NCBI GenBank assembly: GCA_035527535.1
Contig: DATLAK010000182.1
Span: forward strand, 2,439 to 66,438
Origin: Armatimonadota bacterium
Lineage (GTDB): Bacteria > Armatimonadota > Hebobacteria > GCA-020354555 > CP070648
Direction: 5' to 3'
Length of the DNA: 64,000 nucleotides
The notes beneath the pieces are model-generated. The model saw nothing but the letters and a program-made list of their open reading frames with translations, was not told where the DNA came from and made no database searches. Made by a program: the position numbers and the translations under genes. Positions 2,768-41,213 of the stretch are shown piece by piece (within the stretch, counting starts at the first letter, position 1; each line of letters opens with the position of its first letter).

Positions 2768-3607
2768 TTACTCCCCAATCCGCCGCAGGGCTTCGACGAC
2801 CTCGTGAATCAGCCACTCGGGGGTGGAGGCGCCGGCGGTGACGCCGGTCTTGCGGGCCCCCCGGAACCACTGCGGGTCGAGCTCGGCGGCGGTCTCGACG
2901 TGGTGGGTGGGGACGCCCGTCTGCTCGCACAACTGGCTCAGGCGGTTGGTGTTGGCGCTGTTCTTGCCGCCGACGACGACCATGACCTCCACCTGCTGCG
3001 CCAGGCGCAGCGCCGACTCCTGGCGCTGGGAGGTCGCGCCGCAGATGGTGTTGAAGGCGCGCAGCTCGCGCGCTCTCACCGCCAGCGCCGCGGCCACCGC
3101 GCCCAGCCGCGCCGGCGCCTGGGTGGTCTGCACCACCAGTCCCACCCGCGGCCGGAGCTCTATCCCCGCCAGCTCATCCTCGTGCTCGATGACCACCGCC
3201 TGCCCGCCGGCGGCCCCCACCAGGCCCGCGACCTCGGGGTGCCCCTTGTCGCCGAGGATGATGACCTGGTAGCCCCCGTCGGCCAGCGCCCGCACGTGAT
3301 CCTGCGCTCGCGCCACGAACGGGCAGGTGGCGTCCGCTACATGCAGGCCGCGCTCGCGCGCCTGCCGCGAAACCTCCGGGCCCACCCCGTGGGAGGGGAT
3401 GACGACGGTGCCGCCGGCGACCTCGTCCAGGGATGACACCTGGCGCACTCCCTCCTGGCGCAGGCGCTCCACGACCTGGGGATTGTGGATCAGCGAGCCG
3501 AGCGTGTGCAGGGGGCGTGGGCCGGCCTCCTCCTCCCCCTTGACCATGTCGAGCGCGCGCTCGACGCCGAAGCAAAAACCCGCGTTGTCGGCGACGATGA
3601 TCTCCAC
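2768..3607 (-). CDS. ispH: 4-hydroxy-3-methylbut-2-enyl diphosphate reductase
   Basis: N-terminal IIVADNAGFCFGVERA and overall LytB/IspH architecture with conserved Cys positions. Confidence 0.9.
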   Translation of the reverse strand: MEIIVADNAGFCFGVERALDMVKGEEEAGPRPLHTLGSLIHNPQVVERLRQEGVRQVSSLDEVAGGTVVIPSHGVGPEVSRQARERGLHVADATCPFVARAQDHVRALADGGYQVIILGDKGHPEVAGLVGAAGGQAVVIEHEDELAGIELRPRVGLVVQTTQAPARLGAVAAALAVRARELRAFNTICGATSQRQESALRLAQQVEVMVVVGGKNSANTNRLSQLCEQTGVPTHHVETAAELDPQWFRGARKTGVTAGASTPEWLIHEVVEALRRIGE

Positions 3608-3619
3608 TTCGCCCTCATT

Positions 3620-4714
3620 TCATGCCAGCGAGGCGATGACGCTCGCCCAGGCGTTCTCCCAGCGTTCGCGCGAGAAGGTCCGGCGCACCTGCTCCCGCTG
3701 GCGCGCGCCGATCTCCGCGCGCTGTTCGTACACCCGCGCCATCGCCTGCGCCAGGCTCGCCGCGTGGGGTGCGCAGTGCTCGGTCGGCAGGTCCGCCAGC
3801 CCGCCGATGTCGGTCGAGAGAGTGGCGGCGCCGCAGGCCATCGCCTCCAGCGCCGACAGGGAGGTGCCCTCGCCCGCGACGGAGGGGATGACGACCATTT
3901 CGGCCGAGGCGTAAACGGCGGGCATGTCGGCGTGAGCGACCGACCCCCAGAACAGGACCTCGTCGCGCAAGTCGAGCTCGCGCACCAGGCGCCGCAGCCA
4001 GCGCGCGTAATCCCGTCGGCTGGGCGCGCCGACGACGACCAGCCGCGCCCCAGGGTGCACCCGCCGGAAGCGGGCGAAGGCGGCGATGGCGAGATGCGCG
4101 CCGCGGTTGAAGTAGAGGTTGCGGGGTACCACTATCGGGCGCAGCGTCCGCAGCTTATCCCATCCCCGGTTGGGGCGAAAGCGCTCGGTGTCCACGCAGT
4201 TGGGGATGAACCAGCGCCCCGGCGCCACCTGCTCGAAGAAACGATCGCCCGGCGCGACCTCGAGGCCCATCTCGCGCAGGAAGGCGCTGTCATTGGCGAC
4301 GAAGGCGGCGCAGCGGCGGAAGGCGGCGCGCGCCAACGCGCGCTTGACGCGGCTGCGCAGCGCCCCCGGGCGGTCGTCCCAGGTCACGCCATGGGAGAGG
4401 CCGACGACACGTGTGCGCCCTCCGACCAGAGCTGCCGCCAGCGCATAGACCGGGTAGTGGGCGATGACCGCGTCCTGGGCGCGGATGACGGCGACCCGCG
4501 CCGCCAGGCCCAGGAGGTGGGTCCAGAACTCCGCCGGCAGGCCGCGCAAAGGGTTCGGCGCCGGCACGAACCACGGCGCATCAGCGCTCGACGCGCGGGC
4601 GATGACAAGCTGGCGATGCCCGCGCGCGGCCAGGGCGCGGCGCAGGTTCTCGACATAGACGTCGCCGCCGCCGACCAGGGGCAGGTAGGTGTATGTGATG
4701 TGCGCCAGGCGCAT
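3620..4714 (-). CDS. glycosyltransferase family 4 (GT-B)
   Basis: C-terminal GEGTSLSALEAMACG (E-x7-E) motif; start moved to MRLAHITYTY (ORF M167) giving ATGA overlap with upstream GT2 stop at 4714. Confidence 0.7.
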   Translation of the reverse strand: MRLAHITYTYLPLVGGGDVYVENLRRALAARGHRQLVIARASSADAPWFVPAPNPLRGLPAEFWTHLLGLAARVAVIRAQDAVIAHYPVYALAAALVGGRTRVVGLSHGVTWDDRPGALRSRVKRALARAAFRRCAAFVANDSAFLREMGLEVAPGDRFFEQVAPGRWFIPNCVDTERFRPNRGWDKLRTLRPIVVPRNLYFNRGAHLAIAAFARFRRVHPGARLVVVGAPSRRDYARWLRRLVRELDLRDEVLFWGSVAHADMPAVYASAEMVVIPSVAGEGTSLSALEAMACGAATLSTDIGGLADLPTEHCAPHAASLAQAMARVYEQRAEIGARQREQVRRTFSRERWENAWASVIASLA

Positions 4715-5745
4715 CAGTGGCTCGCACTCCGGACCTGCGGGGCGCGCCCCAACGCCGCCAGCGCGAGGCGCTGCCCGATGCCGATGGTATAGCCGCAGAG
4801 ATGGGCGAGGTCCACGATCCCCATCGCCAGCGGCGCCAGCAGGGCGGTACCCGGGCCCGCGCCACGTCGGCGGGCGCGCCGGGCGAGCCGCGCCCCATAG
4901 AGGAGCGCGAGGGCCGGGAGCGCCCACAGCGCCGCTCGGTTCGCCCCCATGCCCAGCGCGATGATCGCCGCCGCCACCACCAGCTCCAGGTACGCCTTGC
5001 CGTAATGCGCGAACCACAGGCCGGACAACCCGTCGCCCCGGGCGAAGCGATAGAACTGTCGAAACAAGCGCGCCGGGCGCCCCTGTGGCCGCCAGCGCAC
5101 GACCGCCCGCGGCGCGAACGCGAACTTCATGCCCGCGCGCCGCAGCGCGACGTCGAAGACGGTGTCCTCGTTGTAGGGCGTCCACTCCGGATACCCGCCC
5201 ACCCGCTCCCACGCCGCGCGCCGAAAAGCGATGGAGCGGCTGGAGGGCAGGAAGGTCTCGGGGTCCACCTCCGCCGCCGCCGGCACCAGGGCGGCCGCCG
5301 CCGCGCGTTCCAACGTCGTGCGCGGCGCGGCCTCGTAGTAGCCGGCGACGACGTCAATATCGTCCTGCTCTTCCAGCGGTCGCACGATGGTCACCAGCCA
5401 TTCGGGATCGAGCACACACCCCGCGTCAACGCAGGCGATGACGGGCTCGTCGCCGACGGCAATGGCCGCGTTGCGCCCGCGCGAGCGATTGGCCCCGGGC
5501 AGGACGAGCACCGTCAGCGGCAAGCGGTCCTGGTAGCGGCGCGCGAGGTCGGCGGTGACGTCGGTGGAGCCCCCGTCGGCGACGACCACGCGTTCGGGCC
5601 GTCGCGTCTGCGCCTGGATGGAGTCCATGAGCTCGGCGATGCCCTCCGCCTCCTGGCGCACGGTGGTGATCAGGCAGACGCGGCTCACGCCGGCAGCCCC
5701 CGGCCGCGGTAGAGGTCGAGGTAGAGCGCTGCGACTCGCGCCCAC
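4714..5745 (-). CDS. glycosyltransferase family 2 with C-terminal TM segment (polyprenyl-phosphate sugar synthase-like)
   Basis: CLITTV...VVVADGGSTD...DAG GT-A motifs plus hydrophobic C-terminus; true start probably downstream of 5745 (overlaps next gene by 60 nt). Confidence 0.65.
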   Translation of the reverse strand: MGASRSALPRPLPRPGAAGVSRVCLITTVRQEAEGIAELMDSIQAQTRRPERVVVADGGSTDVTADLARRYQDRLPLTVLVLPGANRSRGRNAAIAVGDEPVIACVDAGCVLDPEWLVTIVRPLEEQDDIDVVAGYYEAAPRTTLERAAAAALVPAAAEVDPETFLPSSRSIAFRRAAWERVGGYPEWTPYNEDTVFDVALRRAGMKFAFAPRAVVRWRPQGRPARLFRQFYRFARGDGLSGLWFAHYGKAYLELVVAAAIIALGMGANRAALWALPALALLYGARLARRARRRGAGPGTALLAPLAMGIVDLAHLCGYTIGIGQRLALAALGRAPQVRSASH

Positions 5746-6719
5746 GTCTGCGCGCGGGCGTAGGCCTCGGCGGCGTCCAGGCCGGCGCTGGACGCTTCCG
5801 GCTGCTCCAGGTGGCGCGCGATGGCGGCGGCGAGGCGGTCGGGCTCATCGGCGGCGACCATGTGGGATGACGCCGGGAACAGCTCGAGGTAATCGCGCTT
5901 CAACGGGTTGTCGTAGAGCGCGCAGGCGAGGCGGCGATAGGCCATCGCCTCGAGGATGGTGAGATAGCCGGAGACGAAGGCGAAGCGGCAGCCCTCCAGA
6001 AACGGCCCGACCTCGCGCGTCCAGCCCTGCACGGCGACGCTGACTCCCGCCATCCGCGCGGCGCTCAGCACCGTGTCGCGCAGCGGCCCGTCGCCGCAGA
6101 TGACGAGCGGGAGGTCGTGCCCGCGTTCGCGCAGCCGGCGCAGGGTCTCGACGTATCGCATGATGCCGGTGTCGGGGGCGAGGCGGCCGACGTAGAGCGC
6201 GGGCGCCTGGGGCGGGGGATCAGGGACGCGCGCGGGCGGGGAATCAACGCCGCCGTACGATACCAGGTCGCACCTGTGGCCGTACCAGCGGGGTATGAAC
6301 TCGCCCATGCAGATGGTCGCCGCCGCGCGCGCGGCCAGACGCCGCCGCAGCCAGCGGGCGGTGCGACGCAGGGGATAGCCCTCGTAGCCGTGAAAGGTCA
6401 CGAACAGCGGCGGCCGCGGCCCGGGCCAGGCGGGGGCGATGAAGCGCAGGTAGGAGTAGAGGTCGTGGCAGTGAATGACCTGCGCGCGGTTCAGCACGTC
6501 GAGCTGGCGGTCGCACACCGCTTTCGCCATCCCCCCGGGGACGCGGCGCACGTGGATGCCGATGAGGTCCTCGTCCCGCGGCCACCCCGGCTTCCACAGG
6601 CGCGTCAGCACCGTGACCGCGTGCCCGAGGCGCGTCAGCTCCTCGCTCACGCGCAGGACGTGCTTCTCGACGCCGCCCAGCCGCGGAGCGAAGTGGGGGG
6701 TGATCATCAGCACGTTCAC
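5685..6719 (-). CDS. glycosyltransferase family 4
   Basis: MNVLMITPHFAPRLGGVEKHV N-terminus typical of GT4/RfaB-like GT-B enzymes. Confidence 0.7.
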   Translation of the reverse strand: MNVLMITPHFAPRLGGVEKHVLRVSEELTRLGHAVTVLTRLWKPGWPRDEDLIGIHVRRVPGGMAKAVCDRQLDVLNRAQVIHCHDLYSYLRFIAPAWPGPRPPLFVTFHGYEGYPLRRTARWLRRRLAARAAATICMGEFIPRWYGHRCDLVSYGGVDSPPARVPDPPPQAPALYVGRLAPDTGIMRYVETLRRLRERGHDLPLVICGDGPLRDTVLSAARMAGVSVAVQGWTREVGPFLEGCRFAFVSGYLTILEAMAYRRLACALYDNPLKRDYLELFPASSHMVAADEPDRLAAAIARHLEQPEASSAGLDAAEAYARAQTWARVAALYLDLYRGRGLPA

Positions 6720-6731
6720 GGCCCTATTCTC

Positions 6732-8243
6732 TCACAGAACGACGAACAGCGCCAGGTGGCGCTCGAAGACCGCGATCTGCAACATCTGGGCGGCAAGCAG
6801 GGTGGCGAGGCTCCACTCGGGCCGGCGGCCGACGGCGACGAAACCCCCGGCGGCAACCGTCGCGGGCAGCATCAGGAACATCCAGATGCGCCCGGCCTCG
6901 GCGCGCACCACCCCCGAGAGGTCGAGCGCGATCAGCGTGAACGCCAACGCCCATAGCAGCGGCGTGATCTGCGCGCGTTCGCCGCGCGCGAGCGCCCTCG
7001 CCTCCCCCCACATCTGGCACAGCAGCCACAGCCCGAGCCCGGCACCCAGGAACATCCAGAAGTCGAACAGGTTCCACCCCAGCCAGCGCCAGTAGGTGCG
7101 CGCGAATGCCTGCGTCGTCACCTCGCGGTGCGCCCCCAGCGCCGACCTCACGATCGCCGGGAAGTCTATCCCCGCCGCCGCGTGCGCCACCGCGAACACC
7201 GCTACCGCTGCGGTCAGCCACGCGCCCGCCACCCGCCACGCCGGGCGGGGTCGCGGTTCGCCGCTGCGGCCTCCGCCCGCAAGCTGCGCCATCGCCGCCC
7301 ACGCCGCCAGCAATAGCGGGAGCACCAGCACCGCCAGGCTCGTGAGCGCCGCTAGCGCCCACATCGCGCCTGCCGCCGCGCCCCACCCAGGGCGTCGCCG
7401 CGACCACCCCAGGTGGAAGAGATACAGGGCTAGCATAGTCTCCAGGGTGACCAGTTGCACGATGGAGGGGGTGAACAGGAGCAGGCTCGGCACCGCCCCT
7501 GCCAGCGCGGCGGCGCATACCGCCGCCGTCGCGCCCCCGCGCTCGCGCGCCAGCAGAAACACGGGGATGATGCTCAGGCACCCCAGCAGACCGAGGAGCC
7601 ACGCCGCCAGCACCGCCGCGACGGCCTCGGCGATCGGCACCGGACGACCGTACAGGCGTGCGTAGGCGCCCGCGATCTCCGCCGGTTCCATGCCGGTGTA
7701 CGCGGCGATGAAGCTGGAGGCCGCGTCGAGGAGACCGGGGGAATGGGCGACCGCCCGGCGCACCGCCCAGAAGAAGATGATGGGCCCCGGCGGGTAGGTC
7801 TGTGCGTGCTGGCTGAAAGCTCGCATGTGGTAGGCGTATTCGCGCAGGAACTGCGCCATGTCCCTGATGTTGCCCGCCTCGCCGAAATAGGTGGTCGCCA
7901 CCGGGCTCAGGATGACGGCGCCGGCAAAGGCGGTGGAGGCGGGGTGCATCTCCAGCACTGAAAGCTGCAGTGCAAACGCCAGCAGCACGAACAGCAGCAC
8001 CCACGCGGCGCAGACGCGGGCGCTGCGGCGCGCGCGGCGCAGCAGCCAGAGGCTGAAGGCGATCAGCGCCAATGAGGGCAGCGTCGGCCTCCACCAGCGC
8101 GCCCAAGCGATGTCGCCAGGCCCTCGGTGCGGCCACTGCCACTCGCTGGCGACGCCCCAGGCGCCGCGGGCGGCGAGCATTGCCGCCGCCATGCCGACCA
8201 ACAACGTGGCCGCCAGAAACGCGAAGTCGCGGGTGCGCATCAC
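6732..8243 (-). CDS. polytopic integral membrane protein, GT-C-like (hypothetical)
   Basis: More than 10 hydrophobic spans; ends 1 nt before next gene; family not recognised. Confidence 0.45.
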   Translation of the reverse strand: MMRTRDFAFLAATLLVGMAAAMLAARGAWGVASEWQWPHRGPGDIAWARWWRPTLPSLALIAFSLWLLRRARRSARVCAAWVLLFVLLAFALQLSVLEMHPASTAFAGAVILSPVATTYFGEAGNIRDMAQFLREYAYHMRAFSQHAQTYPPGPIIFFWAVRRAVAHSPGLLDAASSFIAAYTGMEPAEIAGAYARLYGRPVPIAEAVAAVLAAWLLGLLGCLSIIPVFLLARERGGATAAVCAAALAGAVPSLLLFTPSIVQLVTLETMLALYLFHLGWSRRRPGWGAAAGAMWALAALTSLAVLVLPLLLAAWAAMAQLAGGGRSGEPRPRPAWRVAGAWLTAAVAVFAVAHAAAGIDFPAIVRSALGAHREVTTQAFARTYWRWLGWNLFDFWMFLGAGLGLWLLCQMWGEARALARGERAQITPLLWALAFTLIALDLSGVVRAEAGRIWMFLMLPATVAAGGFVAVGRRPEWSLATLLAAQMLQIAVFERHLALFVVL

Positions 8244-9854
8244 CTACTCCGGAACCAGGCGCAAGAGCGCGGCCTGCGGACGCACGAATACCGCCTCGAA
8301 GTCACTCGCGGCGCCGGGGTTGAAAACCCCCAGCGCCCGTTCATACTCTGTGTAGAGCACGAAGCGCAAGCCGTTGTCCGCCATCAGCTCTCGGCGCTGC
8401 GAGGGCGAGGCGGCCGCGGAGAAGAACCACACGACCTGCTTCAGCTTGCGCGGGTAGTGCAGGGTCTCGTCCCAGTGCCCGACGAAGACTGTGTTGCCTG
8501 CGACGCCGGGGAGGTAGCTGCCCTCCAGCGACGCGCACATCACCCCCTGCTCCATGCGCGTGTTCTCGCGCAGCCAGGTCATCGCCTGCACCGCGTCGGC
8601 GCGCAGGTAGAGGGGCGGCATCAGCACCCGCAGGTAGGCGCGGTTATTGGTCATCAGGTCGCGCGCGCCCCGCGCCATGAAGAACACGTTCGACGGGCAG
8701 GCGGCGGCCACCAACAGCACCGCCAAGGCCAGGGCCGCCGACCGCGACATGCGCGGAGCCGCCCATTCGCCGACAAACGACGCGGCCAGCAGGCACAGCG
8801 GTATGTGCACCCCCTCCGCCAGCTTGCGCTGAAACGATACCGGCGTCAAGAACACGAGCAGGAAGGTCACCACCGCCCATATCACCGGCAGCGCCTGCGG
8901 CGCGCTGCGCCCGCGCAGAGCCGTCATCGCCCCGGGGATGGCGAACGCCAGCACCAGCCCGAAGCCGGCCGCAAAGTGCGCCAGGGGCGGCGTCAGCTTC
9001 TGCGTCACGGCCTTGTCGTGGAAGACCACATTGGTCTGGAACACCCAGTACTGGTAGGCGACGAAGGGCGCCGCCATGACCGCGATCAGCGCCGCGAACT
9101 TCATCTCGCGCAGCGGCATCCGGCGGCCGATAATCCCCGCCGCGACCACGTACACGGCAAGCGTCAGCCACGCCGGGAACACGTCGTAGGTGTGGACGTT
9201 GCCCAGCATCAGCGCCGCCGCACCCCCCAGCGCCGCCAGCCTCCACGAGTCGGCGCGCACCGCCGCCAGGTAGGCGGCCCACATCGCCACCAGCAGCGCC
9301 ACCGAGCAGGCGAACATCGGGTTGAGCAGGAGCGTGAGAAAAGTGATGGCCTCGGGCATGATCAGGCGCGGCCCGTAGTCAATCGGGTGCACGGTGGCAC
9401 CGGGGGCGGCCAGCGCGTAGAGCCAGCCCAGGCCCGACGAGAACGCCGCGAACGCCCACGCCAGCCGGCGCGTGAACCGCCGCTCGCATAGCTGCGCCGC
9501 CAGCGCGTACACCGCAACCAGCAGGAGCGCGCCGCAGATGACGCGGGCGAGGTGATAGACCCAGATCGGCGGGATATGAGTTCCGCGGGCCGCCAACCCC
9601 AAGGCCAGGAAGAAGCCGAGGAAGAAGCGCGCCGGCTGCGGCTCTGTGGTGAAGGGGTCGTGGAACAGCAGCTCCCCGCGCAGCACCTGGCGCATCCACC
9701 CCAGATAGACATTGTGCTCGTCGGGATTGGCGAGCAAGCCCATGTAGTGGTAGCCGGGGGGGGTGATGAACCAGCCGAAGAGGTAGGGCAGGCACGTCAA
9801 CCCCATCACCGCGAGCGAGGCCCAGAGCGCCCAGCGCCACTCGTCGCGGGTCAT
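8244..9854 (-). CDS. polytopic integral membrane protein, putative GT-C glycosyltransferase
   Basis: First loop carries ANPDEHN (DE motif as in GT-C enzymes); start moved to MTRDEW because first 40 ORF codons are read through an intergenic palindromic repeat. Confidence 0.5.
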   Translation of the reverse strand: MTRDEWRWALWASLAVMGLTCLPYLFGWFITPPGYHYMGLLANPDEHNVYLGWMRQVLRGELLFHDPFTTEPQPARFFLGFFLALGLAARGTHIPPIWVYHLARVICGALLLVAVYALAAQLCERRFTRRLAWAFAAFSSGLGWLYALAAPGATVHPIDYGPRLIMPEAITFLTLLLNPMFACSVALLVAMWAAYLAAVRADSWRLAALGGAAALMLGNVHTYDVFPAWLTLAVYVVAAGIIGRRMPLREMKFAALIAVMAAPFVAYQYWVFQTNVVFHDKAVTQKLTPPLAHFAAGFGLVLAFAIPGAMTALRGRSAPQALPVIWAVVTFLLVFLTPVSFQRKLAEGVHIPLCLLAASFVGEWAAPRMSRSAALALAVLLVAAACPSNVFFMARGARDLMTNNRAYLRVLMPPLYLRADAVQAMTWLRENTRMEQGVMCASLEGSYLPGVAGNTVFVGHWDETLHYPRKLKQVVWFFSAAASPSQRRELMADNGLRFVLYTEYERALGVFNPGAASDFEAVFVRPQAALLRLVPE

Positions 9855-9893
9855 GGCGCCCGCGCGCGCGGCCTGCTCGCCGGCCCCGTTCAC

Positions 9894-9970
9894 GGGTCGG
9901 CAGGGGACGGTTCCTTCCCGCCCCGGGCCTGGGCGCTGCCCTGGGCGACGGGGAACTGTCCCCTCGCGCC
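9894..9970. repeat. palindromic intergenic repeat family A, copy 1 (GGGGACGGTTCC...GGAACTGTCCCC)
   Basis: About 90% identical to 21384-21461; 12-bp arms around a ~40-nt loop. Confidence 0.8.
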
Positions 9971-9973
9971 CCA

Positions 9974-11635
9974 TTAGTGGTACACCTCCACGCGCGGCCA
10001 GGTGTAGAGCCAGTCGGGAGGGCAGGTGAGCTTCGCGGGCCGCAGGGCCGGCATCGGGGGCGCATGCTCGAAGGTCTCGAGCCGGTCGTAGCGTTTGGGC
10101 AGCTCCGCCATCAGCGCCGCGGGATCCGACTGCCCCAGCCGCAGCAGATCCGCATATTCCGTATCACTGACGACGAAGAAGTCGGAGCGCGCCCGCCGCA
10201 GCGCCGCCGCGTCCCAGCCGGTGACGATGACGCGATACGGCGGCTTCTCGCGCTGCCACCGGTGGAACTCCTCGGCGCTGCGCAGCCCGCCGTTGAAGGG
10301 GGTTAGGGGCGGGGTGAAATACCAGGGCGTGGAGGCGAGCCCGATGCGGGTGCGGGGCGCAGCCCGCGCCTGCAGCCACTCGGCGGCGCGGGTGCGCGGA
10401 TCGGCCGCGGTCATGGTGCCCACCATCTGCCCCGCGTACCAGGTGGTGCCAGCCAACACCGCCAGGCCCAGCACCGCCGGGGAGACGGCCCCCTTCCAGG
10501 CGGCGAGCGCGGGTGGAGTCGCCAATCGCAGGCGCTCCAGCGCATAGCCGCCCGCGATCACCAGCACCGGCAGCAAGGGCAAGCTGTAGCGCAGGAACCG
10601 CTCCTTGCCCGCGCCGATGACAAAGAAGTAGGGCAGGGCGAAGCTCAGCAGCACCATCGCCACTCCGGAGCCTGTCCCGAGCGAAGTCGAGGGGCCGCGC
10701 CGCAGCATGAGCCCGGCTCCCACCAGCCCCAGGAGCAGCGCCGGATAGCCCATGCCCGCCGGCAGGGCGCGCAGCAGATGGTAGAGCCAACCGTTGCCGG
10801 TGGCGGCGAAGGCCGGCGTGCCGCCGATGCGCATGTGCTGCAACTCGAAGTGCAGGTCGCGCAGGAAATCGGGGTTGAGGTGAAGCCCGTCGTCCCCCAG
10901 GAGCAGCAGGAAGGGCGTCACCGCCCAAAAAGCCAGGGCGGCGGCGGCGAGGCCGGCGATCGGCATCAGCAGGGAGGGGGCGTAGCCCTGCTCATCTCGC
11001 GCGAAGAGGTGGGCGAACAGCAGCGGCACCAACCCCAGGATCATCGTGTACTTGGCGGCCGTCGCCAGCCCCAGCGCGAGCCCGGCGACCAGGTAGATGG
11101 CGAGGTCCGCCATCCCGAACAGGCGCGGCAGCACGGCCAGCAGCAGCACGATCAGGAAGGTGGCGAGAACATCCACGGTCGCGTAGTGGGAGTTGACCAC
11201 GTGCGCGGGGAGCACCGCCAGCAGCGCCGCCGAACCCAGGCCGACCGGCGGCCCGCCGAGGTCCTTGCCGATGACGTACACCAAGTACACGGTGCCCACG
11301 CCCAGCAGCGCGGTCAGCGACCGGGCGAGCAAGTGCAGCTCGGTCCAGCCGCCTTCGGGCAGCGGCACCAAGCCCAGGAGGGCGCCGAACTTGGCGCAGA
11401 CGGCGACAAGGTAGATGTAGAAAGTGCCGTAGTTGTAGAAGTGTGGATCCCAGTCGCCGGTGTTGAGCATGTACCATACGGGGCCGAGCAGAGGGGCTTC
11501 GTCGGGGTGGTAGGAGAACAGGTGCGCTGCGCTCGGCAGCCCCCAGCGCAGCCCGGCGAAACGCAGCCCCATCGCCGCCAGCATGACCGCCGCGAGGCAG
11601 GCCCTCTCGATGCGCTCGACTTGGTAGGGCTTCAC
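9974..11635 (-). CDS. GT-C glycosyltransferase, ArnT/PMT (family 39)-like
   Basis: YHPDEAPLL first-loop DE motif, FYNYGTFYIYL, multi-TM N-terminal half and soluble C-terminal domain. Confidence 0.6.
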   Translation of the reverse strand: MKPYQVERIERACLAAVMLAAMGLRFAGLRWGLPSAAHLFSYHPDEAPLLGPVWYMLNTGDWDPHFYNYGTFYIYLVAVCAKFGALLGLVPLPEGGWTELHLLARSLTALLGVGTVYLVYVIGKDLGGPPVGLGSAALLAVLPAHVVNSHYATVDVLATFLIVLLLAVLPRLFGMADLAIYLVAGLALGLATAAKYTMILGLVPLLFAHLFARDEQGYAPSLLMPIAGLAAAALAFWAVTPFLLLLGDDGLHLNPDFLRDLHFELQHMRIGGTPAFAATGNGWLYHLLRALPAGMGYPALLLGLVGAGLMLRRGPSTSLGTGSGVAMVLLSFALPYFFVIGAGKERFLRYSLPLLPVLVIAGGYALERLRLATPPALAAWKGAVSPAVLGLAVLAGTTWYAGQMVGTMTAADPRTRAAEWLQARAAPRTRIGLASTPWYFTPPLTPFNGGLRSAEEFHRWQREKPPYRVIVTGWDAAALRRARSDFFVVSDTEYADLLRLGQSDPAALMAELPKRYDRLETFEHAPPMPALRPAKLTCPPDWLYTWPRVEVYH

Positions 11636-11658
11636 TTGTTCGCCCGTCCGCCGCCGAC

Positions 11659-14130
11659 TCAGACACGGCGCTTCGATTTCGCCCGCAGAACCCGCCGCCT
11701 GCGCCCGCCCAGGCTTGCGCCCACCCCGGCCATGCCGACCGCCGCCGCGATCATGCTCGCGAACAGCCCCAGCCGGAAAGAGGTCGGCGCGAACCGCATC
11801 TCGACCTCGTGCTCTCCGGGGCCGACCCGCACCGCGCGAAAGGCCCCGTTAGCAAGACATATCTCGGCCGGCTTCCCTTCCACCCACGCCCGCCAGCCGG
11901 GGTAGTAGGCGTCGCTCAGCACCAGGTATCCAGCCCGCGGCGCATCGAGGCGCACCCGGTTGATGCCGTCGCGCAGAATCATCGCCGCCACCATCCCCTC
12001 TTTCGTGGGCGGCACTTCGACAGGCTCAGGACCGTCCCGAGCGGAGTCGAGGGGCGCCACTCGCGGCAGCGGCTCGCCGGTCTCGAGCACCACCCCGCCA
12101 CCCGCGGCTTCGCCCAGCTGCGAAAGGGAGCCGAGCAGACCGCTCGCAACTACCGCACTCCGCGCCATGTAGGCCCGGGGCACAGAGTTCTGGACGCGGT
12201 ACAGGTTCACCTCCCCGGCCCGCTCCCGGGTCAGACCCGGCACGTCGAGCGGCGTCTCCGACAGCACGTATCGCACCCCCAGCACCGCCAGCAGCGCCGG
12301 ATCGCAGGGCGCCCCGAGCAGCATGTTGCCGTTGGCCCTGGGGCTCGGATCGCGCCCCTCCACCCGCGCCAGCACCTGGCGATAGCGCGCCAGGTAGAGC
12401 GAGTCATAGCCCTGGACATCGCGCAGTCCGTAAACCATGGCGGCGTTCGGCGGCAGCACCGCGCGGGGGAAGTCGTCCAGGCCCCAGGACTGGTGCAACG
12501 GCATGATGCGGCCGGCACCGTCGCGATCGCCGAGGTAGGCGGTGAGCTCCGTGGGCGGATAGACGCTGCCGGGGGGGGCGGTGCGGTAGTAACCCATGCC
12601 GAAGGCGAAGAGCTCGAATACCGACGCCGCCAGCAGCACCCCGAGCGCCGCGGCGGAACCGGACTGGCGGCGGCTGGCCACCCACAGCGCGCCGACGCCG
12701 GCGCACAGGGACAGCAGCGCCACCAGCAGGTTGACGGCGGGCGCACTCAGCAGGGCCGGCGCCGGCACGTGCAGCGAAGCGGCGATGCCGAGGACGAGGG
12801 CCCCGGCGGCGACGACCATGACGATGGCGGCGACGGCGAGGTGGCGCGCGAAGCGCCTCCCGCGGTCGGCTTCCGCCAGCGCCCTCGCCGCCGCATCGGC
12901 GCCCGAGCCGGCGAGGATGGCGATCGCGGTGGAGTAGATGAAGAGCATCCGCCCCGGGCCGCCGGTGCTGCTGAAGCCGGGAATGGCGTAGAACAGTAGC
13001 CGGCTGATCGGCGTCCCCAGCGCCGCCAGCAGGGCGAGAAGCGCCACCGCGGCGAAGAACACGGTGTGGCGGTCGCGCCGCCAGATGAGCGCGAGCGCCG
13101 CCAGCGCCAGCGGCAGCGCGCCCACGTATGCCGCGTACTCCGCGAAGTTGCCGCGCCCCCAATAGGTGCCGTAGGCGGGGTTGCCCATGAACTCGGGCAG
13201 CACCAGCGTGATCAACTGCTGCCACGGCATCGCGAACCGCAGGTAGGCGCTGTAGCCCTGGGCGCTGGCAGCGGTCGCGCGGTGGCTGAACGATAGCAGC
13301 TCCGCGCTCGGCAGGAGCTGCACCGCGCCCCACAGCAGCGCCAGCGCGGCGGCCGCCGCCGCGGCCAGCAGTGCGGCCCCCAGCCGCCCCGGGCTCGCCC
13401 GCCCCGCGCCCGCCCCGGTGACGGCGCAGGCGGCGAAATAGAGCGCGGTCACGCCGGCGACGTAGAGGAACATCTGCGGATGGCCGGCGAGCAGGGCGGT
13501 GCCGGTGACGAGACCCAGGCCGACGACATACCCCGGCCGCCGGGTGGCGAAGAACCGCGCGACGCAGAACAGGGCCAGCGGCAGCCAGACCGCGGTGTCG
13601 AGCACCGTGGGCAACTGCAGCCACGCCGCCAGAAAGCCGCTGAAGGCGAAGGCGACTCCGCCCAAGGCGGCGCCGAAGCGCCCGCGGCCCAGGGCGCGCA
13701 GGAACAGGTATGTGAACAGCCCCGCCAGCCACAGGTGCAGAGCGGCGGCGATGGCGAAGGCGCGCGCCGGCGGCAACAGGTAGAACAGCAGGTTGGGCGG
13801 ATAGAACACGGCGGACTGGCTGTTGGCGACGAAGGGCGTGCCGCAGAACTGGAACGGATTCCACAGGGGGATGATGCCGCGCGCGAGGGCGTCATGGGCG
13901 TAAGCCCGCCACGGGTAGTACTGCGCCATCGCATCCCAGATGAGGGCGTTCCAATGCTCGGGGGGCGGCGGCGCGGCCGATTGCCAGGGGGCGAAATGGT
14001 GGAGATAGCCGGCGGGCAGCAGCACGTCGCCGGTGAACAGCGCGCGGCCGAGGAACCCGACCGCAAGCGCGGCCATAAGCAGCGGCCTGGCGACGCGGCG
14101 CCCCACCGGCTCCGCCCCCGAGGCCGCCAT
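11659..14130 (-). CDS. YfhO-family membrane glycosyltransferase
   Basis: LWNPFQFCGTPFVANSQSAVFYP motif, N-terminal TM bundle, large extracytoplasmic domain, C-terminal TM anchor; start moved to MAASG (ORF M160) giving ATGA overlap with upstream small gene. Confidence 0.65.
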   Translation of the reverse strand: MAASGAEPVGRRVARPLLMAALAVGFLGRALFTGDVLLPAGYLHHFAPWQSAAPPPPEHWNALIWDAMAQYYPWRAYAHDALARGIIPLWNPFQFCGTPFVANSQSAVFYPPNLLFYLLPPARAFAIAAALHLWLAGLFTYLFLRALGRGRFGAALGGVAFAFSGFLAAWLQLPTVLDTAVWLPLALFCVARFFATRRPGYVVGLGLVTGTALLAGHPQMFLYVAGVTALYFAACAVTGAGAGRASPGRLGAALLAAAAAAALALLWGAVQLLPSAELLSFSHRATAASAQGYSAYLRFAMPWQQLITLVLPEFMGNPAYGTYWGRGNFAEYAAYVGALPLALAALALIWRRDRHTVFFAAVALLALLAALGTPISRLLFYAIPGFSSTGGPGRMLFIYSTAIAILAGSGADAAARALAEADRGRRFARHLAVAAIVMVVAAGALVLGIAASLHVPAPALLSAPAVNLLVALLSLCAGVGALWVASRRQSGSAAALGVLLAASVFELFAFGMGYYRTAPPGSVYPPTELTAYLGDRDGAGRIMPLHQSWGLDDFPRAVLPPNAAMVYGLRDVQGYDSLYLARYRQVLARVEGRDPSPRANGNMLLGAPCDPALLAVLGVRYVLSETPLDVPGLTRERAGEVNLYRVQNSVPRAYMARSAVVASGLLGSLSQLGEAAGGGVVLETGEPLPRVAPLDSARDGPEPVEVPPTKEGMVAAMILRDGINRVRLDAPRAGYLVLSDAYYPGWRAWVEGKPAEICLANGAFRAVRVGPGEHEVEMRFAPTSFRLGLFASMIAAAVGMAGVGASLGGRRRRVLRAKSKRRV

Positions 14131-14498
14131 CAGCTCTTGGCCACGAACGCTACCCCGGCGCAAATCAGCACCACCCCCAATATGCGCACGGGCGGGATCG
14201 CCTCGTGCAGCATGAGCCACGACAGGAAGAGCACGATGATGTAGGTCGAGGCGATCAGGGGATAGACGTAGCTCAGAGCGGTGGCCTGCTTGAGCACCAC
14301 CAGCCACACCATGGCCGACACCGCGTAGAGCCCGAGACCCAGAAAAACATAGGGCGTGAAGACCGCCCGCACCAGGCCGAGCAGCATGGTGATGCCGGGG
14401 CTGCCGAGCGTGCCGACCATGTTCATGCCGTGCTTCATGGAGATCTGGCCAAAGCTGGCCAGCACGACTGCGATCAACACCAGCAGCAGTATAGGCAA
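14130..14498 (-). CDS. small 4-TM EamA/SMR-like DMT protein (ArnE/ArnF-like flippase subunit candidate)
   Basis: 122 aa, four hydrophobic spans, ...SYVYPLIAS...E...G..LI.AGV pattern of EamA half-domains; start-coupled to YfhO. Confidence 0.5.
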   Translation of the reverse strand: MPILLLVLIAVVLASFGQISMKHGMNMVGTLGSPGITMLLGLVRAVFTPYVFLGLGLYAVSAMVWLVVLKQATALSYVYPLIASTYIIVLFLSWLMLHEAIPPVRILGVVLICAGVAFVAKS

Positions 14499-14522: not shown

Positions 14523-15116
14523 CTATTGCACGCGGCGGGCGCGGCCAAACGGGAAGTAGACGAAGATCGCTTTCCCCCGCACCGACGACAGGGCGACCGG
14601 CCCCCACGCCCGGCTGTCATCGCTATCGTCGCGGTTGTCGCCCAAGACGTAGACGCTGTTCTCCGGCACTCGCACCGGCGATCGGAAATCCCCGCGCCAG
14701 CTCGCGGTGTAGGGCTCGACCAGGCGGCCGCCGTTGACGAACACGTGATTGCTCCACACCCATACCCACTCGCCGGGCAGCCCCACCACGCGCTTGATGA
14801 CGACCTCGCGCCGCTTGCCCGGAGCGCTCAGAGTTATGACGTCGAAGCGCCTTGGGGCAGGGCGCCGGTACGCGATCTTCGATACCAGGACAAAGTCACC
14901 GGAGCGCAGCCCGGGGCGCATGGAGGAGCCTTCGACGATATCGGACTCATACACGTACAGCCGCAGCAGCACCGCCGCCGCCACCGCCAGGACGACCAGG
15001 CTCACCAGTGCGCGGCGCCGCGTGGCCGGCGCCGGTCGGGCTGCCGCCTGCGCGGGCGGCTGCCGCGGCACGCCGTTCGCATCGTTCTCCACTGCGGACC
15101 GTTCGCCCTCTTCCAT
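14523..15116 (-). CDS. lepB: signal peptidase I
   Basis: SSMRPGL (catalytic Ser box), KRVVGLPGE, VLGDNRDDSDDSR boxes of S26 peptidases. Confidence 0.8.
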   Translation of the reverse strand: MEEGERSAVENDANGVPRQPPAQAAARPAPATRRRALVSLVVLAVAAAVLLRLYVYESDIVEGSSMRPGLRSGDFVLVSKIAYRRPAPRRFDVITLSAPGKRREVVIKRVVGLPGEWVWVWSNHVFVNGGRLVEPYTASWRGDFRSPVRVPENSVYVLGDNRDDSDDSRAWGPVALSSVRGKAIFVYFPFGRARRVQ

Positions 15117-17334: not shown

Positions 17335-17967
17335 TTAAGCGGCGAGGAGTTCCTGGGCCGTGTCCACGGCGCTGGCGGCATCGGGCGCATAGCCGTCGGC
17401 GCCGATCTCGTCGGCATAGCTCTGGGTGATCGGCGCGCCGCCGATCATGACCTTGACCCGGTCGCGCACGCCGGCGGCCTTGAGCGCGTTGATGGTTTCC
17501 GCCATGGCGGGCATGGTGGTGGTGAGCAGCGCCGACAGCGCCAGCACCTGGATGCCCTGGTCCCGCACCGCCTCGGCGAACTGCTCCGGCTTGACGTCCA
17601 CCCCCAGGTCCTTGACCTCGTAGCCCGCGCCCTCCAACATCATGGCGACCAGGTTCTTGCCGATGTCATGGAGGTCGCCCTTGACGGTGCCGATGGCCAC
17701 CCGCCCCACGGGTTCGATCCCGCCTTCTGCGATCAGCGGCCGCAGCAAGTCGAGGCTGGCGTGCATGGCGCGCGCCGCAATCAGCACCTCGGGCACGTAA
17801 AACTCGTTGTTCTTGAACTTCGCCCCCACCACCGACATGCCCGCGATCAGTCCGTCGTTAATGATCTGCTGCGGCGGCGTCTTCTCTGCGATCGCCTGCT
17901 CGGTGACTTCCCGCGCGCGGTCGCGATTCCCGGCGATGATGGCGTCGGCCAACTCCTTCAGCTCCAT
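17335..17967 (-). CDS. cobalamin-binding corrinoid protein (MtxC-type)
   Basis: B12-binding DxHxxG motif GDLHDIGKN, SALLTTT, MIGGA; N-terminal helical cap domain. Confidence 0.75.
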   Translation of the reverse strand: MELKELADAIIAGNRDRAREVTEQAIAEKTPPQQIINDGLIAGMSVVGAKFKNNEFYVPEVLIAARAMHASLDLLRPLIAEGGIEPVGRVAIGTVKGDLHDIGKNLVAMMLEGAGYEVKDLGVDVKPEQFAEAVRDQGIQVLALSALLTTTMPAMAETINALKAAGVRDRVKVMIGGAPITQSYADEIGADGYAPDAASAVDTAQELLAA

Positions 17968-18022
17968 GTGGCTACCTCCTATGGCGATACGTGAACGCTG
18001 TTTTTCTGCGTTCCCGCGACCG

Positions 18023-19888: not shown

Positions 19889-20029
19889 AGGCTCTGCGCC
19901 TGCGCTGCCTGCCTCTTCACCCCGCCTCACCCCGCCTCATGCCCGGCCCGGCGCGACCGGCCGTAACACAACGGGCGGGGGCTGAGCCCCGCCCCGGGAC
20001 CTCGTCCGCACCGCCGCCCGCTCGCGCGG

Positions 20030-39204: not shown

Positions 39205-40200
39205 TCACAGACCGTACTGCCGCCGATAATACTCCAAAAACTCTCCCGACTTGATCTTGCGCCACCAGGCCTGGTTCTCCCGGTACCACTCGACGGTGGC
39301 GGCGAGGGCGGACTTGAGATCATAGGTCGGCGCCCAGCCCAGGGCCCGCAGCTTGGAGGCGTCCACCGCATAGCGCCGATCGTGGCCGGGGCGATCCTTG
39401 ACGTGGGTGATGAGGTCGTGCGGCTTGCCGAGGGCGTCGAGGATCATGGTCGCGATTTCGATGTTGGTGGCGGTCGGCGTGCCGCCGATGTTGTAGATTT
39501 CGCCCGGCTCGCCGCGCTCCAGCAGCAGCTCGCACGCGCGGCAGTGATCCTCGACGTGCATCCAGTCGCGCATCTGCCGCCCGTCGCCATAGACCGGCAG
39601 CGGCTGGTCCTCGAGGGCATTGGTGATGAACAGCGACGCCATCTTCTCCGGGTACTGGTGGGGGCCGAGGTTATTGGTGGCGCGGCTGATGATGACCGGC
39701 GCGCCATAGGTCTTCCAGTACGAGTGGGCAAGCAGCTCTCCCCCCGCCTTGCTCGCGGCATAGGGATTGCCGGGGCGCAGGCGGTCGTCCTCGCGGAATG
39801 CACCCTGCTCGATGGGGCCGTAGACCTCGTCGGTGCTGATCTGCAGGACGCGCCTGATGCCCAACTCGCGCGCGACCTCGAGCAGGACATGGACGCCGAA
39901 GATGTCGGTGCGCAGGAAGCCGCCGGGGTCGGCGATGGAGCGGTCCACGTGGCTCTCGGCGGCGAAGTTGACGATGGCGTCACAGCCCCGGGCGGCGCCG
40001 CGGGCCGCCTCGACGTCGCAGATGTCGCCCTGGACGAAGGTGTAGCGGGGATCGCCGGCGACCTCGACCAGGTTGTCGAGGTTGCCGGCGTAGGTCAGCT
40101 TGTCGAGATTGACCACCTCCCAATCGGGGTGGCCGCGCAGCAGGTAGCGGATGAAGTTGCTGCCGATGAACCCGGCGCCGCCGGTGACGAGAAGCTTCAT
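39205..40200 (-). CDS. rfbB: dTDP-glucose 4,6-dehydratase
   Basis: MKLLVTGGAGFIGSNF Rossmann motif, YAASKAG catalytic YxxxK, extended SDR architecture. Confidence 0.85.
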   Translation of the reverse strand: MKLLVTGGAGFIGSNFIRYLLRGHPDWEVVNLDKLTYAGNLDNLVEVAGDPRYTFVQGDICDVEAARGAARGCDAIVNFAAESHVDRSIADPGGFLRTDIFGVHVLLEVARELGIRRVLQISTDEVYGPIEQGAFREDDRLRPGNPYAASKAGGELLAHSYWKTYGAPVIISRATNNLGPHQYPEKMASLFITNALEDQPLPVYGDGRQMRDWMHVEDHCRACELLLERGEPGEIYNIGGTPTATNIEIATMILDALGKPHDLITHVKDRPGHDRRYAVDASKLRALGWAPTYDLKSALAATVEWYRENQAWWRKIKSGEFLEYYRRQYGL

Positions 40201-40212
40201 GATCCTATCACC

Positions 40213-40899: not shown

Positions 40900-41039
40900 A
40901 TTGCTCTCTCCCACATCGCGGTGCGGGGCAACTAGGTTCCTTGTCCACGTGGCAGAAACACCTTTTTGCCGAGTCACCACGCCGAGCCGGAACACTGGCA
41001 GCCCGGATGCGCAGCAGGGACCCTCCCGTGTATATCGCG

Positions 41040-41072
41040 CCACAGCCGAGGGCGGCTGTGCCACACTAACGG
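41040..41072. repeat. hairpin repeat family C (CCACAGCCGAGGGCGGCTGTGCCACACTAACGG)
   Basis: 8-bp stem CACAGCCG/CGGCTGTG + conserved CCACACTRAC tail; related copies at 46164-46192 and 55358-55386. Confidence 0.7.
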
Positions 41073-41213
41073 CCGCAGTACACCGCGACGGCGCATCATT
41101 CCGGTGAGGTTCCACGCACGTCCGCTGCCCCGGGAGTCATCACCGCAAGGCAACAATGTCTCTGGCAGCCTGCTCTTGCCGCTCTGCATTCGTGCGATTT
41201 CGGTTCTTGTTGC

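Follow-up and report, generated by a model that had tools for sequence, protein, structure and literature searches.

A Conserved Armatimonadota Locus Encoding Four GT-C-Like Membrane Proteins and Its Probable Role in Transmembrane Glycosylation

Described Glycosylation Systems and the Armatimonadota Locus

A lipid-phosphate-sugar synthase, a small flippase, and a GT-C glycosyltransferase together form an established three-component paradigm (PMC11127046, PMC8035078), represented by GtrA/GtrB/Gtr*, CsbB-GtcA-YfhO (LTA/WTA), and ArnC-ArnE/F-ArnT. The known parts of the mycobacterial PIM/LM/LAM and arabinogalactan systems are PimA/PimB' (GT4), Ppm1 or PpgS (GT2), the GT-Cs PimE/MptA/MptB/Emb/Aft, and a small flippase of the SMR/GtrA type. 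Two further points of comparison are the STT3/AglB/PglB enzymes (GT66) and the Pgf system of Streptococcus mutans, which comprises the GT2 PgfS and the GT-Cs PgfM1/PgfM2.

Here, we analyzed a locus within a 64-kb stretch of DNA (the window) from a member of the Armatimonadota, a phylum with very few cultivated members and an almost uncharted envelope chemistry. A first-pass annotation had described eight genes on the minus strand; all eight ORFs were confirmed at their coordinates, and identical copies with the same gene calls are present in independent ENA and Logan metagenome assemblies, as are the same genes in an Armatimonadota MAG at NCBI (HUT75819-HUT75826). Because the GC3 of the cluster genes is 0.80-0.92 and homologues turned up for every gene sought (M5, M4, and, in tblastn searches of related loci, the full set of eight), these are evidently real genes and not chance ORFs. 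They encode a cytoplasmic module (GT4a, GT2, GT4b), four membrane proteins back to back (M4, M5, a PMT-like protein, and YfhO), and a four-TM protein (TM4). We propose that the locus probably encodes the central part of a conserved, multi-component machine for transmembrane glycosylation in Armatimonadota.

As in the three-component systems, a small four-TM flippase-like protein lies beside GT-Cs that include a genuine YfhO, an ArnC-type GT2 is part of the relatives' version of the locus, and the GT-Cs are expected from their families to act outside the cytoplasm. However, four GT-Cs of four unrelated sequence families stand in a row here (six in relatives) where those systems have one, the flippase is of the ArnE/F type and not the GtrA/GtcA type, the window's GT2 does not belong to the Und-P-sugar synthase type, and the locus also carries a cytoplasmic GT4/GT2/GT4 module and is phylum-wide, not a serotype or stress accessory. 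With the mycobacterial systems it would share cytoplasmic GT4 steps on a lipid anchor combined with several GT-Cs that use polyprenyl-phosphate-sugars outside; in addition, a short soluble GT2 of the relatives matches PpgS, and AftA is among the structural matches of M5. By analogy, the proposed scheme as a whole is comparable to PIM to LM/LAM assembly in mycobacteria or to the ALG pathway of the ER. Nevertheless, we found no sequence-level PimE, Emb, or Aft membership here, the genes are in one locus whereas the mycobacterial ones are dispersed, and the host is not an actinobacterium. As here, the Pgf system has multiple GT-Cs, one of them YfhO-like, and a PgfS-like GT2 occurs in the relatives; however, scores fall far under the equivalog cutoffs (27 bits vs. 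1400), genes for an epimerase or an adhesin substrate are absent, and taxon and gene content differ.

The Membrane Proteins

The first-pass claim of four consecutive GT-C-like membrane proteins holds, on Pfam matches for the PMT-like protein and YfhO and on fold similarity for M4 and M5, and the motifs quoted for them (ANPDEHN, YHPDEAPLL, and the YfhO motif LWNPFQFCGTPFVANSQSAVFYP) are all present in the named proteins. Recognition by profile HMMs was borne out for the two GT4s, the GT2, PMT/PMT_2, and YfhO, all of which score above cutoff, but not for the product of 6732-8243, which falls below cutoff, or that of 8244-9854, which has no Pfam match.

The YfhO-family protein (11659..14130, 823 aa) scores 85.9 bits against Pfam YfhO (PF09586; cutoff 28.5) over aa 111-659, carries LWNPFQFCGTPFVANSQSAVFYP at aa 89-111, and has about a dozen hydrophobic segments plus one at the C-terminus; its C-terminus also gives weak matches to PgfM1/PgfM2. 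The PMT/GT39-like protein (9974..11635, 553 aa), which has a C-terminal soluble region, is above cutoff for both PMT (PF02366, 37.3 bits) and PMT_2 (PF13231, 36.1 bits). Its YHPDEAPLL motif spans aa 42-50, with the loop-1 HPDE at aa 43-46 following TM1, and it is named "glycosyltransferase family 39 protein" by PGAP and "Ara4N transferase-like" by JGI. M4 (6732..8243, 502-503 aa) is an all-helical polytopic protein of a narrow family that is "hypothetical" in PGAP. Its fold resembles those of solved GT-C enzymes; against PMT_2 (PF13231) it scores 23.9 bits, below the cutoff of 26.1, and some orthologues carry a precomputed PF13231 hit. The loop-1 residue Glu34 is invariant in an 18-sequence alignment, yet it is Gln in the orthologue from the related locus L089, and the non-catalytic GT-C-fold proteins PIGU and GAB1 are among the M4 hits; M4 may for these reasons not be an enzyme. 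Sequence searches of PDB chains with M4, PMT, and YfhO returned nothing usable. Since hhalign detected no relationship of M5 with PMT or with M4, the four GT-Cs do not appear to be recent paralogues, and they could serve different acceptors.

M5 (8244..9974, 536-576 aa) has an ambiguous start (ATG 9974, GTG ~9893, or ATG 9854), is "hypothetical" in PGAP, and matched no Pfam or NCBIfam model at E<=0.01, STT3/OST models included. Superposition on solved GT-C enzymes nevertheless identified STT3/AglB/PglB as its nearest structures, including their C-terminal domain: the C-terminal periplasmic alpha/beta core domain of M5 is homologous to that of oligosaccharyltransferases (OSTs). AftA is also among the best matches, with 461 residues aligned. 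By its fold, M5 belongs to the GT-C glycosyltransferase superfamily. At the sequence level, an M5 profile gave only a marginal hit among PDB sequences, to AglB-S2 (3vu0, E 0.087). The WWDYG motif is absent, the SWWDYGNW of AglB-S2 aligning opposite CASLEGSY in the HMMER alignment, and the corresponding columns 441-444 are variable among 249 family sequences; about 15 residues downstream, the family has its own conserved motif, GHWxET. M5 further differs from the GT66 enzymes in its length (about 540 aa vs. >700), in having no Pfam STT3 match, and in its partners, YfhO and an ArnC-like GT2. ANPDEHN corresponds to aa 42-48, and position 46, which lies in the first external loop, carries an acidic residue (Asp or Glu) in 248 of the 249 sequences. 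D159 (99%), E168 (100% acidic), R104 (99%), R343 (98%), and K/R344 (100%) are similarly conserved, and together these acidic and basic residues look like an active-site-like set. The family is large (>3,700 clusters at 50% identity score E<=1e-30) and is without a Pfam model, and literature searches found no description of it or of the locus. Two "hypothetical" families, M4 and M5, thereby gain a fold and a likely activity, and M5, the closest structural neighbor of OSTs, lacks their hallmark motif and is linked to YfhO in several phyla.

The OST-like fold of M5 bears on whether the pathway glycosylates proteins. In one form of this explanation, the GT4/GT2/GT4 enzymes would build a lipid-linked glycan, YfhO, PMT, and M4 would trim or extend it, and M5 would move it en bloc to secreted proteins; in another, the PMT-like protein and YfhO would themselves attach O-glycans directly to proteins, in the manner of actinobacterial PMT or streptococcal Pgf systems. 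In both forms, glycosylation would be linked to export through Sec and to the cleavage of signal peptides. The presence of a PMT-family member and the resemblance of the YfhO C-terminus to the protein glycosyltransferases PgfM1/PgfM2 are in keeping with this, as is signal peptidase I (14523..15116, minus strand, Peptidase_S26), which lies immediately upstream in many loci and is a conserved neighbor of TM4 in part of the phylum (12 related loci). This adjacency, however, is lost in many lineages, where a RACo and a B12-binding gene abut TM4, and M5 has neither a Pfam STT3 hit nor the sequon-binding WWDYG, the columns of which vary in the family. Moreover, Pfam searches revealed no priming phosphoglycosyltransferase (PGT), Wzx, or ABC glycan exporter in the cluster or among 30 further ORFs in the rest of the window, and the neighborhood contains no Wzx/PglK flippase that could handle a PP-linked oligosaccharide. 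With YfhO and an ArnC-like GT2 as genomic partners, M5 seems to point to monophosphate donors and not to a PGT/Wzx LLO pathway. We consider protein glycosylation unlikely and prefer an envelope glycoconjugate as the product.

The protein that the first-pass annotation described as a 122-aa, four-TM EamA/SMR-like protein, TM4 (14130..14498), is indeed a small DMT/SMR-like protein and a full-length homologue of ArnF (NCBIfam, 43.7 bits, E 3.3e-11; equivalog cutoff 99), with 24.8 bits to NCBIfam ArnE and 26% identity to Escherichia coli ArnF in BLASTP (E 0.019). Its Pfam hits are EamA (24.4 bits, below 28.2) and SLC35F only, with no GtrA (PF04138) match, and it is annotated in PGAP as a multidrug resistance protein. 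Homology to ArnF is thus clear from these searches, and equivalence is not; we regard TM4 as a candidate polyprenyl-phosphate-sugar flippase. Where detected, it directly precedes the GT-C block, usually YfhO and sometimes M5, and four related loci (L069, L082, L083, and L085) have a tandem TM4 pair resembling the ArnE/ArnF pair. That ArnF is the best model for TM4, together with the JGI name of the PMT-like protein, could suggest an ArnT-like pathway in which the ArnE/F-like protein flips sugars that several GT-Cs then add to lipid A or core, tuning outer-membrane charge. Yet ArnA, ArnB, ArnC, and ArnD are absent from the 64-kb window, the locus looks constitutive, lying amid housekeeping genes and not in a stress island, and the YfhO-M5 pair is also found in genomes of Chloroflexota and CPR, monoderm lineages that are not known to have LPS. 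Modification of lipid A or LPS is therefore highly improbable.

The Cytoplasmic Module

Both GT4s and the GT2 exceed the Pfam gathering threshold. GT4a (3620..4714, 364 aa), a cytoplasmic GT-B glycosyltransferase named "glycosyltransferase family 4 protein" by PGAP (HUT75819.1), matches Glyco_trans_1_4 (80 bits), Glycos_transf_1 (77 bits), and Glyco_transf_4 (44 bits), and no specific NCBIfam equivalog was found for it. GT4b (5685..6719, 340-344 aa, start ATG 6707 or GTG 6719), the second cytoplasmic GT4, matches Glyco_transf_4 (62.6 bits) and Glyco_trans_4_4 (51.8 bits) and adjoins GT2 in relatives too.

GT2 (4714..5688, 324 aa), which has a hydrophobic C-terminal tail, had been annotated as extending to 5745, but the 61-nt overlap with GT4b that this implies is probably not real; the start is most likely GTG 5688, because orthologues and public gene calls agree on it. 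The first-pass annotation had assigned this protein to the polyprenyl-phosphate sugar synthases (GtrB/CsbB/ArnC). We found no ArnC (PRK10714) hit at E<=0.01 in the profile search and no GtrB or DPMS chains among its matches in PDB sequences; AglJ scored 23.5 bits, and BLASTP similarity to E. coli ArnC (23% identity over 121 residues) covers the N-terminal GT-A core only. Since the likeness is limited to the generic GT-A core, assignment to the GtrB/CsbB/ArnC/DPMS/Ppm1-type synthases is not supported. Pfam matches are Glycos_transf_2, Glyco_tranf_2_3, Glyco_trans_2_3, and Glyco_transf_21, and the best NCBIfam model is MftF (63.8 bits), with EpsD and PgaC also among the best and a weaker match to HpnI over aa 102-310. 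By these profiles, the protein is of the MftF/EpsD/HpnI type and not ArnC/GtrB-like. Its hydrophobic segments lie at ~aa 251-273 and 299-317 (numbering of the 343-aa ORF), and an even number of TM passes is suggested by the fusion of GT2 to cytoplasmic GT4a in L089. The GT-A plus C-terminal TM architecture is also common to HpnI/MftF-type GT2s and does not discriminate between these types. A QxxRW processive-synthase motif was considered and rejected: the window protein reads AVVRW, but the Arg is His in the orthologue from L005.

Gene Order, Fusions, and the Proposed Pathway

The order TM4-YfhO-(PMT)-M5-(M4)-...-GT4b-GT2-GT4a is kept in distant Armatimonadota and is conserved across classes of the phylum; the GT4b-GT2-GT4a block is found mainly in closer relatives. 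Close relatives have six GT-Cs in a row and add YfhO2, PMT_2, and a separate short GT2 that matches ArnC, AglJ, PpgS, and PgfS (its ArnC and AglJ scores are 58-65 bits). The relatives L006 and L089 encode synthase, flippase, and GT-C together, and L090 has the ArnC-like GT2 and the GT-C fusion, with no flippase identified there. YfhO2 and PMT_2 are not present in the 64-kb window, tblastn did not detect the ArnC-like GT2 in it, and a Pfam search of the rest of the window was also negative; no ArnC/GtrB/Ppm1-type polyprenyl-phosphate sugar synthase lies in the cluster or elsewhere in the window. The locus had been viewed as a complete pathway; because the ArnC/AglJ/PpgS-type GT2 of the relatives is missing from the window, completeness is not supported.

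Several observations link the genes to one another. In one contig, YfhO and M5 are naturally fused (P0207, which matches the YfhO of the window at E 1e-57) and an ArnC/PgfS-like GT2 follows the fusion, GT2 and GT4a are naturally fused in L089, a Chloroflexota genome has YfhO-M5-YfhO with overlapping genes, and the YfhO-M5 pairing occurs in Armatimonadota, Chloroflexota, and CPR genomes. In the window, the GT2/GT4a junction at 4714, previously read as an ATGA overlap, is a 1-nt TGATG overlap, as is TM4/YfhO at 14130, and GT2 starting from GTG 5688 has a 4-nt GTGA overlap with the GT4b stop; the overlaps at these three junctions are consistent with co-translation. The conserved order, overlapping junctions, and YfhO-M5 and GT2-GT4a fusions support the view that the cluster genes form a functional unit.

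All eight genes are co-directional, as had been noted, but the run is much longer, extending to def (22036) on one side and a response-regulator gene (2156) on the other, if not farther, and the edges of the "island" are therefore functional and not structural. The run also holds rsmB, a Zn peptidase, RACo, a B12-binding protein, and ispH. Scans for promoters and terminators found as many as in shuffled sequence and so set no operon limits. Inherited synteny alone, with the GT4/GT2/GT4 block and each GT-C serving unrelated pathways, would account for the clearly unrelated genes in the run, for the restriction of the GT4b-GT2-GT4a block mainly to closer relatives, and for M5 homologues that stand alone, as in L088. 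It would not account for the fusions, the stop/start codon overlaps at three block junctions, the persistence of TM4-YfhO-M5 across classes and of YfhO-M5 across phyla, or the insertion of the ArnC-like GT2 within the same block in relatives, and we judge it very unlikely. The locus had also been called an island, but horizontal acquisition is rejected on composition and synteny: its GC content is 0.715, compared with 0.688 in the remainder of the window, housekeeping genes surround it, and the synteny is phylum-wide. Because it is phylum-wide and lies amid housekeeping genes, the locus probably makes a core envelope glycoconjugate.

In the order of steps that we infer for such a machine, the MftF/HpnI-like GT2 and the two GT4s would use nucleotide sugars at the cytoplasmic face to build a short glycan on a membrane lipid acceptor, the lipid being a guess from weak HpnI/GT21-type similarity. 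An ArnC/PpgS-type GT2, in-cluster in relatives and absent from the 64 kb here, would make polyprenyl-monophosphate sugars, which the ArnE/F-like four-TM protein would flip to the outer face. There, YfhO, the PMT/GT39-like protein, M5, and M4 would use these putative lipid-linked donors to extend or decorate an envelope glycoconjugate, most likely a lipoglycan, a cell-wall-associated glycan, or a surface glycoprotein; in agreement with the first-pass annotation, the acceptor itself could not be deduced. The locus offers concrete targets for new lipid-linked glycosylation chemistry, a new CAZy GT-C family, and glyco-engineering.

A more far-reaching reading, which we hold to be improbable, is that M5 founds a bacterial STT3-like branch in which GHWxET replaces the sequon-binding WWDYG. 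M5 and YfhO would then be an ancient two-enzyme module of Armatimonadota, Chloroflexota, CPR, and a low-GC lineage that finishes an ER-like pathway, in which GT4/GT2 enzymes assemble a glycan on a lipid in the cytoplasm, several GT-Cs extend it outside with polyprenyl-phosphate-sugars, and M5 transfers it en bloc to an acceptor, either a protein or the cell wall. If true, ALG/OST logic would have a prokaryotic analogue or relative beyond the PglB/AglB systems known so far.

Two minor features of the window were also noted. The 9855-9973 spacer contains a GC-rich hairpin (z -2.07) that is not conserved in relatives, and an epimerase/dehydratase gene and two UDP-GlcNAc-2-epimerase-like genes lie about 25 kb from the cluster.

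Gene content and boundaries of the proposed glycosylation locus

The locus at 3620–14498 contains eight minus-strand open reading frames: the glycosyltransferases GT4a (3620–4714), GT2 (4714–5688), and GT4b (5685–6719), and the membrane proteins M4 (6732–8243), M5 (8244–9854), a PMT-like protein (9974–11635), YfhO (11659–14130), and the 122-aa protein TM4 (14130–14498). All eight are present as open reading frames at the coordinates assigned in the first-pass annotation (for GT2, with an upper end at 5745), and the three motifs quoted there were found at aa 42–48 of M5, aa 42–50 of the PMT-like protein, and aa 89–111 of YfhO. Their GC3 values (0.80–0.92) are those of real genes in this genome, where the window has a GC content of ∼69–70%. 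Identical proteins in unchanged gene order are found in four further assemblies, two metagenome assemblies from ENA and two from Logan, and exact copies are also encoded in a third-party-annotated Armatimonadota MAG at NCBI (HUT75819–HUT75826).

The junction at 4714, previously described as an ATGA overlap, is actually a 1-nt TGATG overlap, as is the TM4/YfhO junction at 14130. For GT2 the most probable start is GTG 5688, which creates a GTGA overlap with GT4b and gives a protein of 324 aa, in line with its orthologs and with public gene calls. The start of M5 is ambiguous, with candidates at 9974, about 9893, and 9854, because the PMT and M5 genes abut or overlap in relatives and the spacer at 9855–9973, between the PMT stop codon and ATG 9854, is not conserved. 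This spacer is GC-rich, can form a long hairpin (−75 kcal/mol, z −2.07) and, if read from ATG 9974, encodes a GREGTVP...GREGTVP repeat. The co-directional run continues upstream with genes for signal peptidase I, rsmB, a Zn peptidase, a B12-binding protein, RACo, fmt, and def; on its downstream side it includes ispH. The latter gene (2768–3607, minus strand), which encodes the last step of isoprenoid precursor synthesis, begins 12 nt past the GT4a stop; this adjacency is probably coincidental, as it is not conserved in two related loci (L006 and L089).

Both GT4s and GT2 exceed the Pfam threshold, as do YfhO (Pfam YfhO, 85.9 bits) and the PMT-like protein (PMT, 37.3 bits; PMT_2, 36.1 bits). 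M4 reaches just 23.9 bits against PMT_2, for which the cutoff is 26.1, and M5 has no match in Pfam or NCBIfam; PGAP names both hypothetical and TM4 a multidrug resistance protein. TM4 aligns end to end with the NCBIfam ArnF model (43.7 bits, E 3e-11, under the equivalog cutoff) and more weakly with ArnE, and it was also compared pairwise with Escherichia coli ArnF. Because of the NCBIfam alignments we assign TM4, on sequence similarity, to the ArnE/F branch of small DMT proteins.

M4 and M5 as unannotated GT-C families

We aligned 40 homologs of M5 and 18 of M4 and predicted both structures (M5: pLDDT 95.1, pTM 0.94; M4: pLDDT 86.6, pTM 0.90). Both models have the fold of GT-C membrane glycosyltransferases, and with these two predicted folds the earlier description of four consecutive GT-C-like proteins is correct. 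M4 may be non-catalytic because Glu34 in its first loop is replaced by Gln in the L089 ortholog.

M5 was also considered as a canonical oligosaccharyltransferase, a reading that we rejected: in the HMMER alignment the AglB segment SWWDYGNW, which carries the WWDYG hallmark of STT3, AglB, and PglB, lies opposite CASLEGSY in M5, and the columns opposite WWDYG are variable in a 249-sequence alignment. M5 has a conserved motif of its own, G459-H460-W461-x-E463-T464, ∼15 residues beyond the WWDYG position. In the first external loop, 248 of the 249 sequences carry Asp or Glu at position 46; D159 and R104 are each conserved at 99%, position 168 (E168) is acidic in 100%, and Q342-R343-K/R344 is about 100% conserved. 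By these conservation patterns the membrane domain appears to keep the requirements of a putative GT-C active site. That M5 represents a new kind of bacterial oligosaccharyltransferase completing an ER-like pathway seems to us improbable.

The family is large: a profile search against 1.84 billion representatives yielded 8,291 clusters with E ≤ 1e-3, 3,749 of them with E ≤ 1e-30. None of eight sampled members had an above-threshold Pfam match in the M5 region, one of them showing a weak DUF6541 match. Among GTDB species representatives, M5 relatives are encoded at 225 loci, the best 80 of which are almost all from Armatimonadota, in many classes; remoter members, all annotated as hypothetical, occur in Leptolinea (Chloroflexota) and in the CPR lineages Levyibacteriota and Gottesmanbacteria. 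Carriers of the family include MAGs of Fimbriimonadaceae and Armatimonadaceae. M5 stands for a large, STT3-like family that lacks WWDYG and is tied to YfhO across phyla, and we found no description of it or of the locus in the searchable literature.

Conserved gene order and natural fusions

When 86 related loci were searched by tblastn with the window proteins, a recurrent order emerged of RACo, B12-binding protein, (Zn peptidase, RsmB, signal peptidase), TM4, YfhO, (PMT), and M5, with TM4 tandemly duplicated in four loci. In CP070648 and CP070816, the complete genomes most closely related to this one, and in a 440-kb contig, TM4, YfhO, PMT, M5, and M4 are followed by a second YfhO, a second PMT_2, a short GT2, GT4b, GT2, and GT4a, so that six GT-Cs are encoded consecutively; the M4 slot in this order is filled by a true ortholog (E 1e-63). 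The locus is therefore a conserved core locus and not the island proposed in the first-pass annotation, a view contradicted by this recurring order, by the GC content of the cluster (0.715 vs. 0.688 in the remaining window), and by its housekeeping surroundings (priA, metK, coaBC, gmk, ftsW/rodA, ftsEX, plsX, fabD, and fabF).

Two natural fusions, YfhO-M5 and GT2-GT4a, link the components. The first is a 1,352-aa protein, P0207, encoded at 4756–8814 of locus L090 on a Logan contig of 32% GC from an organism quite unlike that of the window (70% GC). The N-terminal half of P0207 matches the window YfhO along 769 residues (E 1e-57), and downstream are encoded a 244-aa ArnC/PgfS-like GT2 and a Wzy_C/IctB-like (O-antigen-ligase-like) protein. 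The second, in L089 (18749–20821), is 690 aa long and retains the hydrophobic linker, which implies that the GT2 tail crosses the membrane an even number of times and that GT2 and GT4a act jointly. In Leptolinea (L091, 4362–11952) the M5 homolog lies between two YfhO genes, with gene overlaps, and the set is preceded by a 511-aa unannotated membrane-sized protein that is not an M4 homolog. The Levyibacteriota homolog (L092, 3861–9219) is preceded by a 701-aa and a 513-aa protein, both unannotated.

The genes for a RACo-type corrinoid reductive activator and a small B12-binding-domain protein (17335–19930, minus strand) lie just upstream of TM4-YfhO-M5 on the same strand in most of the Armatimonadota loci (L005–L082), and in Zipacnadia they adjoin TM4 directly. 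We know of no functional tie of either protein to glycosylation.

Donor synthesis, proposed pathway, and acceptor

The transmembrane tail of GT2 had been taken as a signature of GtrB, CsbB, and ArnC; the evidence points elsewhere. The top NCBIfam models are MftF (63.8 bits), EpsD, TIGR04283, and PgaC, the HpnI alignment extends through the hydrophobic region, and ArnC is not matched at E ≤ 0.01. Further Pfam matches are Glyco_tranf_2_3, Glyco_trans_2_3, and Glyco_transf_21, no GtrB or DPMS chain is among the matches to PDB sequences, and the 23% identity to E. coli ArnC is confined to 121 N-terminal residues. The short soluble GT2 that accompanies the extra PMT_2 in L089 and L006 behaves differently and matches AglJ (65 bits), ArnC (58 bits), Dol-P-hexose transferase, PpgS, and PgfS, a pattern shared by the GT2 behind P0207. 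In CP070648 (locus L005, 17309–18825), the extra GT2 beside the second PMT_2 is a 310-aa soluble, MftF-like protein rather than this ArnC-like type, and is followed by a 182-aa unannotated protein. Given these differences, the window GT2 is less likely to be the donor synthase than to work with the GT4s on a membrane-bound acceptor. A tblastn search with the relatives' GT2 detected no ArnC/AglJ/PpgS-type short GT2 anywhere in the 64-kb window; the complete pathway that had been suggested is thus not supported here, and the gene for the donor synthase must lie in another part of the genome.

We propose that GT2 and the two GT4s would assemble a short lipid-linked glycan on the cytoplasmic side of the membrane, that an ArnC/PpgS-type enzyme would make polyprenyl-phosphate sugars to be flipped by TM4, and that YfhO, the PMT-like enzyme, M5, and perhaps M4 would add these sugars outside. 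Lipid-carrier-dependent extracytoplasmic glycosylation is a known kind of system, and three-component systems of the same logic have been described (PMC11127046, PMC8035078). The present locus differs in its expansion to four to six unrelated GT-Cs in fixed order, which resembles mycobacterial LM/LAM assembly or the ER ALG pathway, in its putative ArnE/F-type flippase, and in its inclusion of two unannotated GT-C families, those of M4 and M5.

Chloroflexota and CPR bacteria, which are generally regarded as lacking LPS, also have the YfhO-M5 pair, and this makes lipid A an unlikely acceptor; more probable acceptors are a lipoglycan, a wall glycan, or a surface glycoprotein. Nucleotide sugars could come from the products of genes ∼25 kb from the cluster (39205–43288, minus strand), one for an NAD-dependent sugar epimerase/dehydratase and two, next to each other, that are UDP-GlcNAc 2-epimerase-like.
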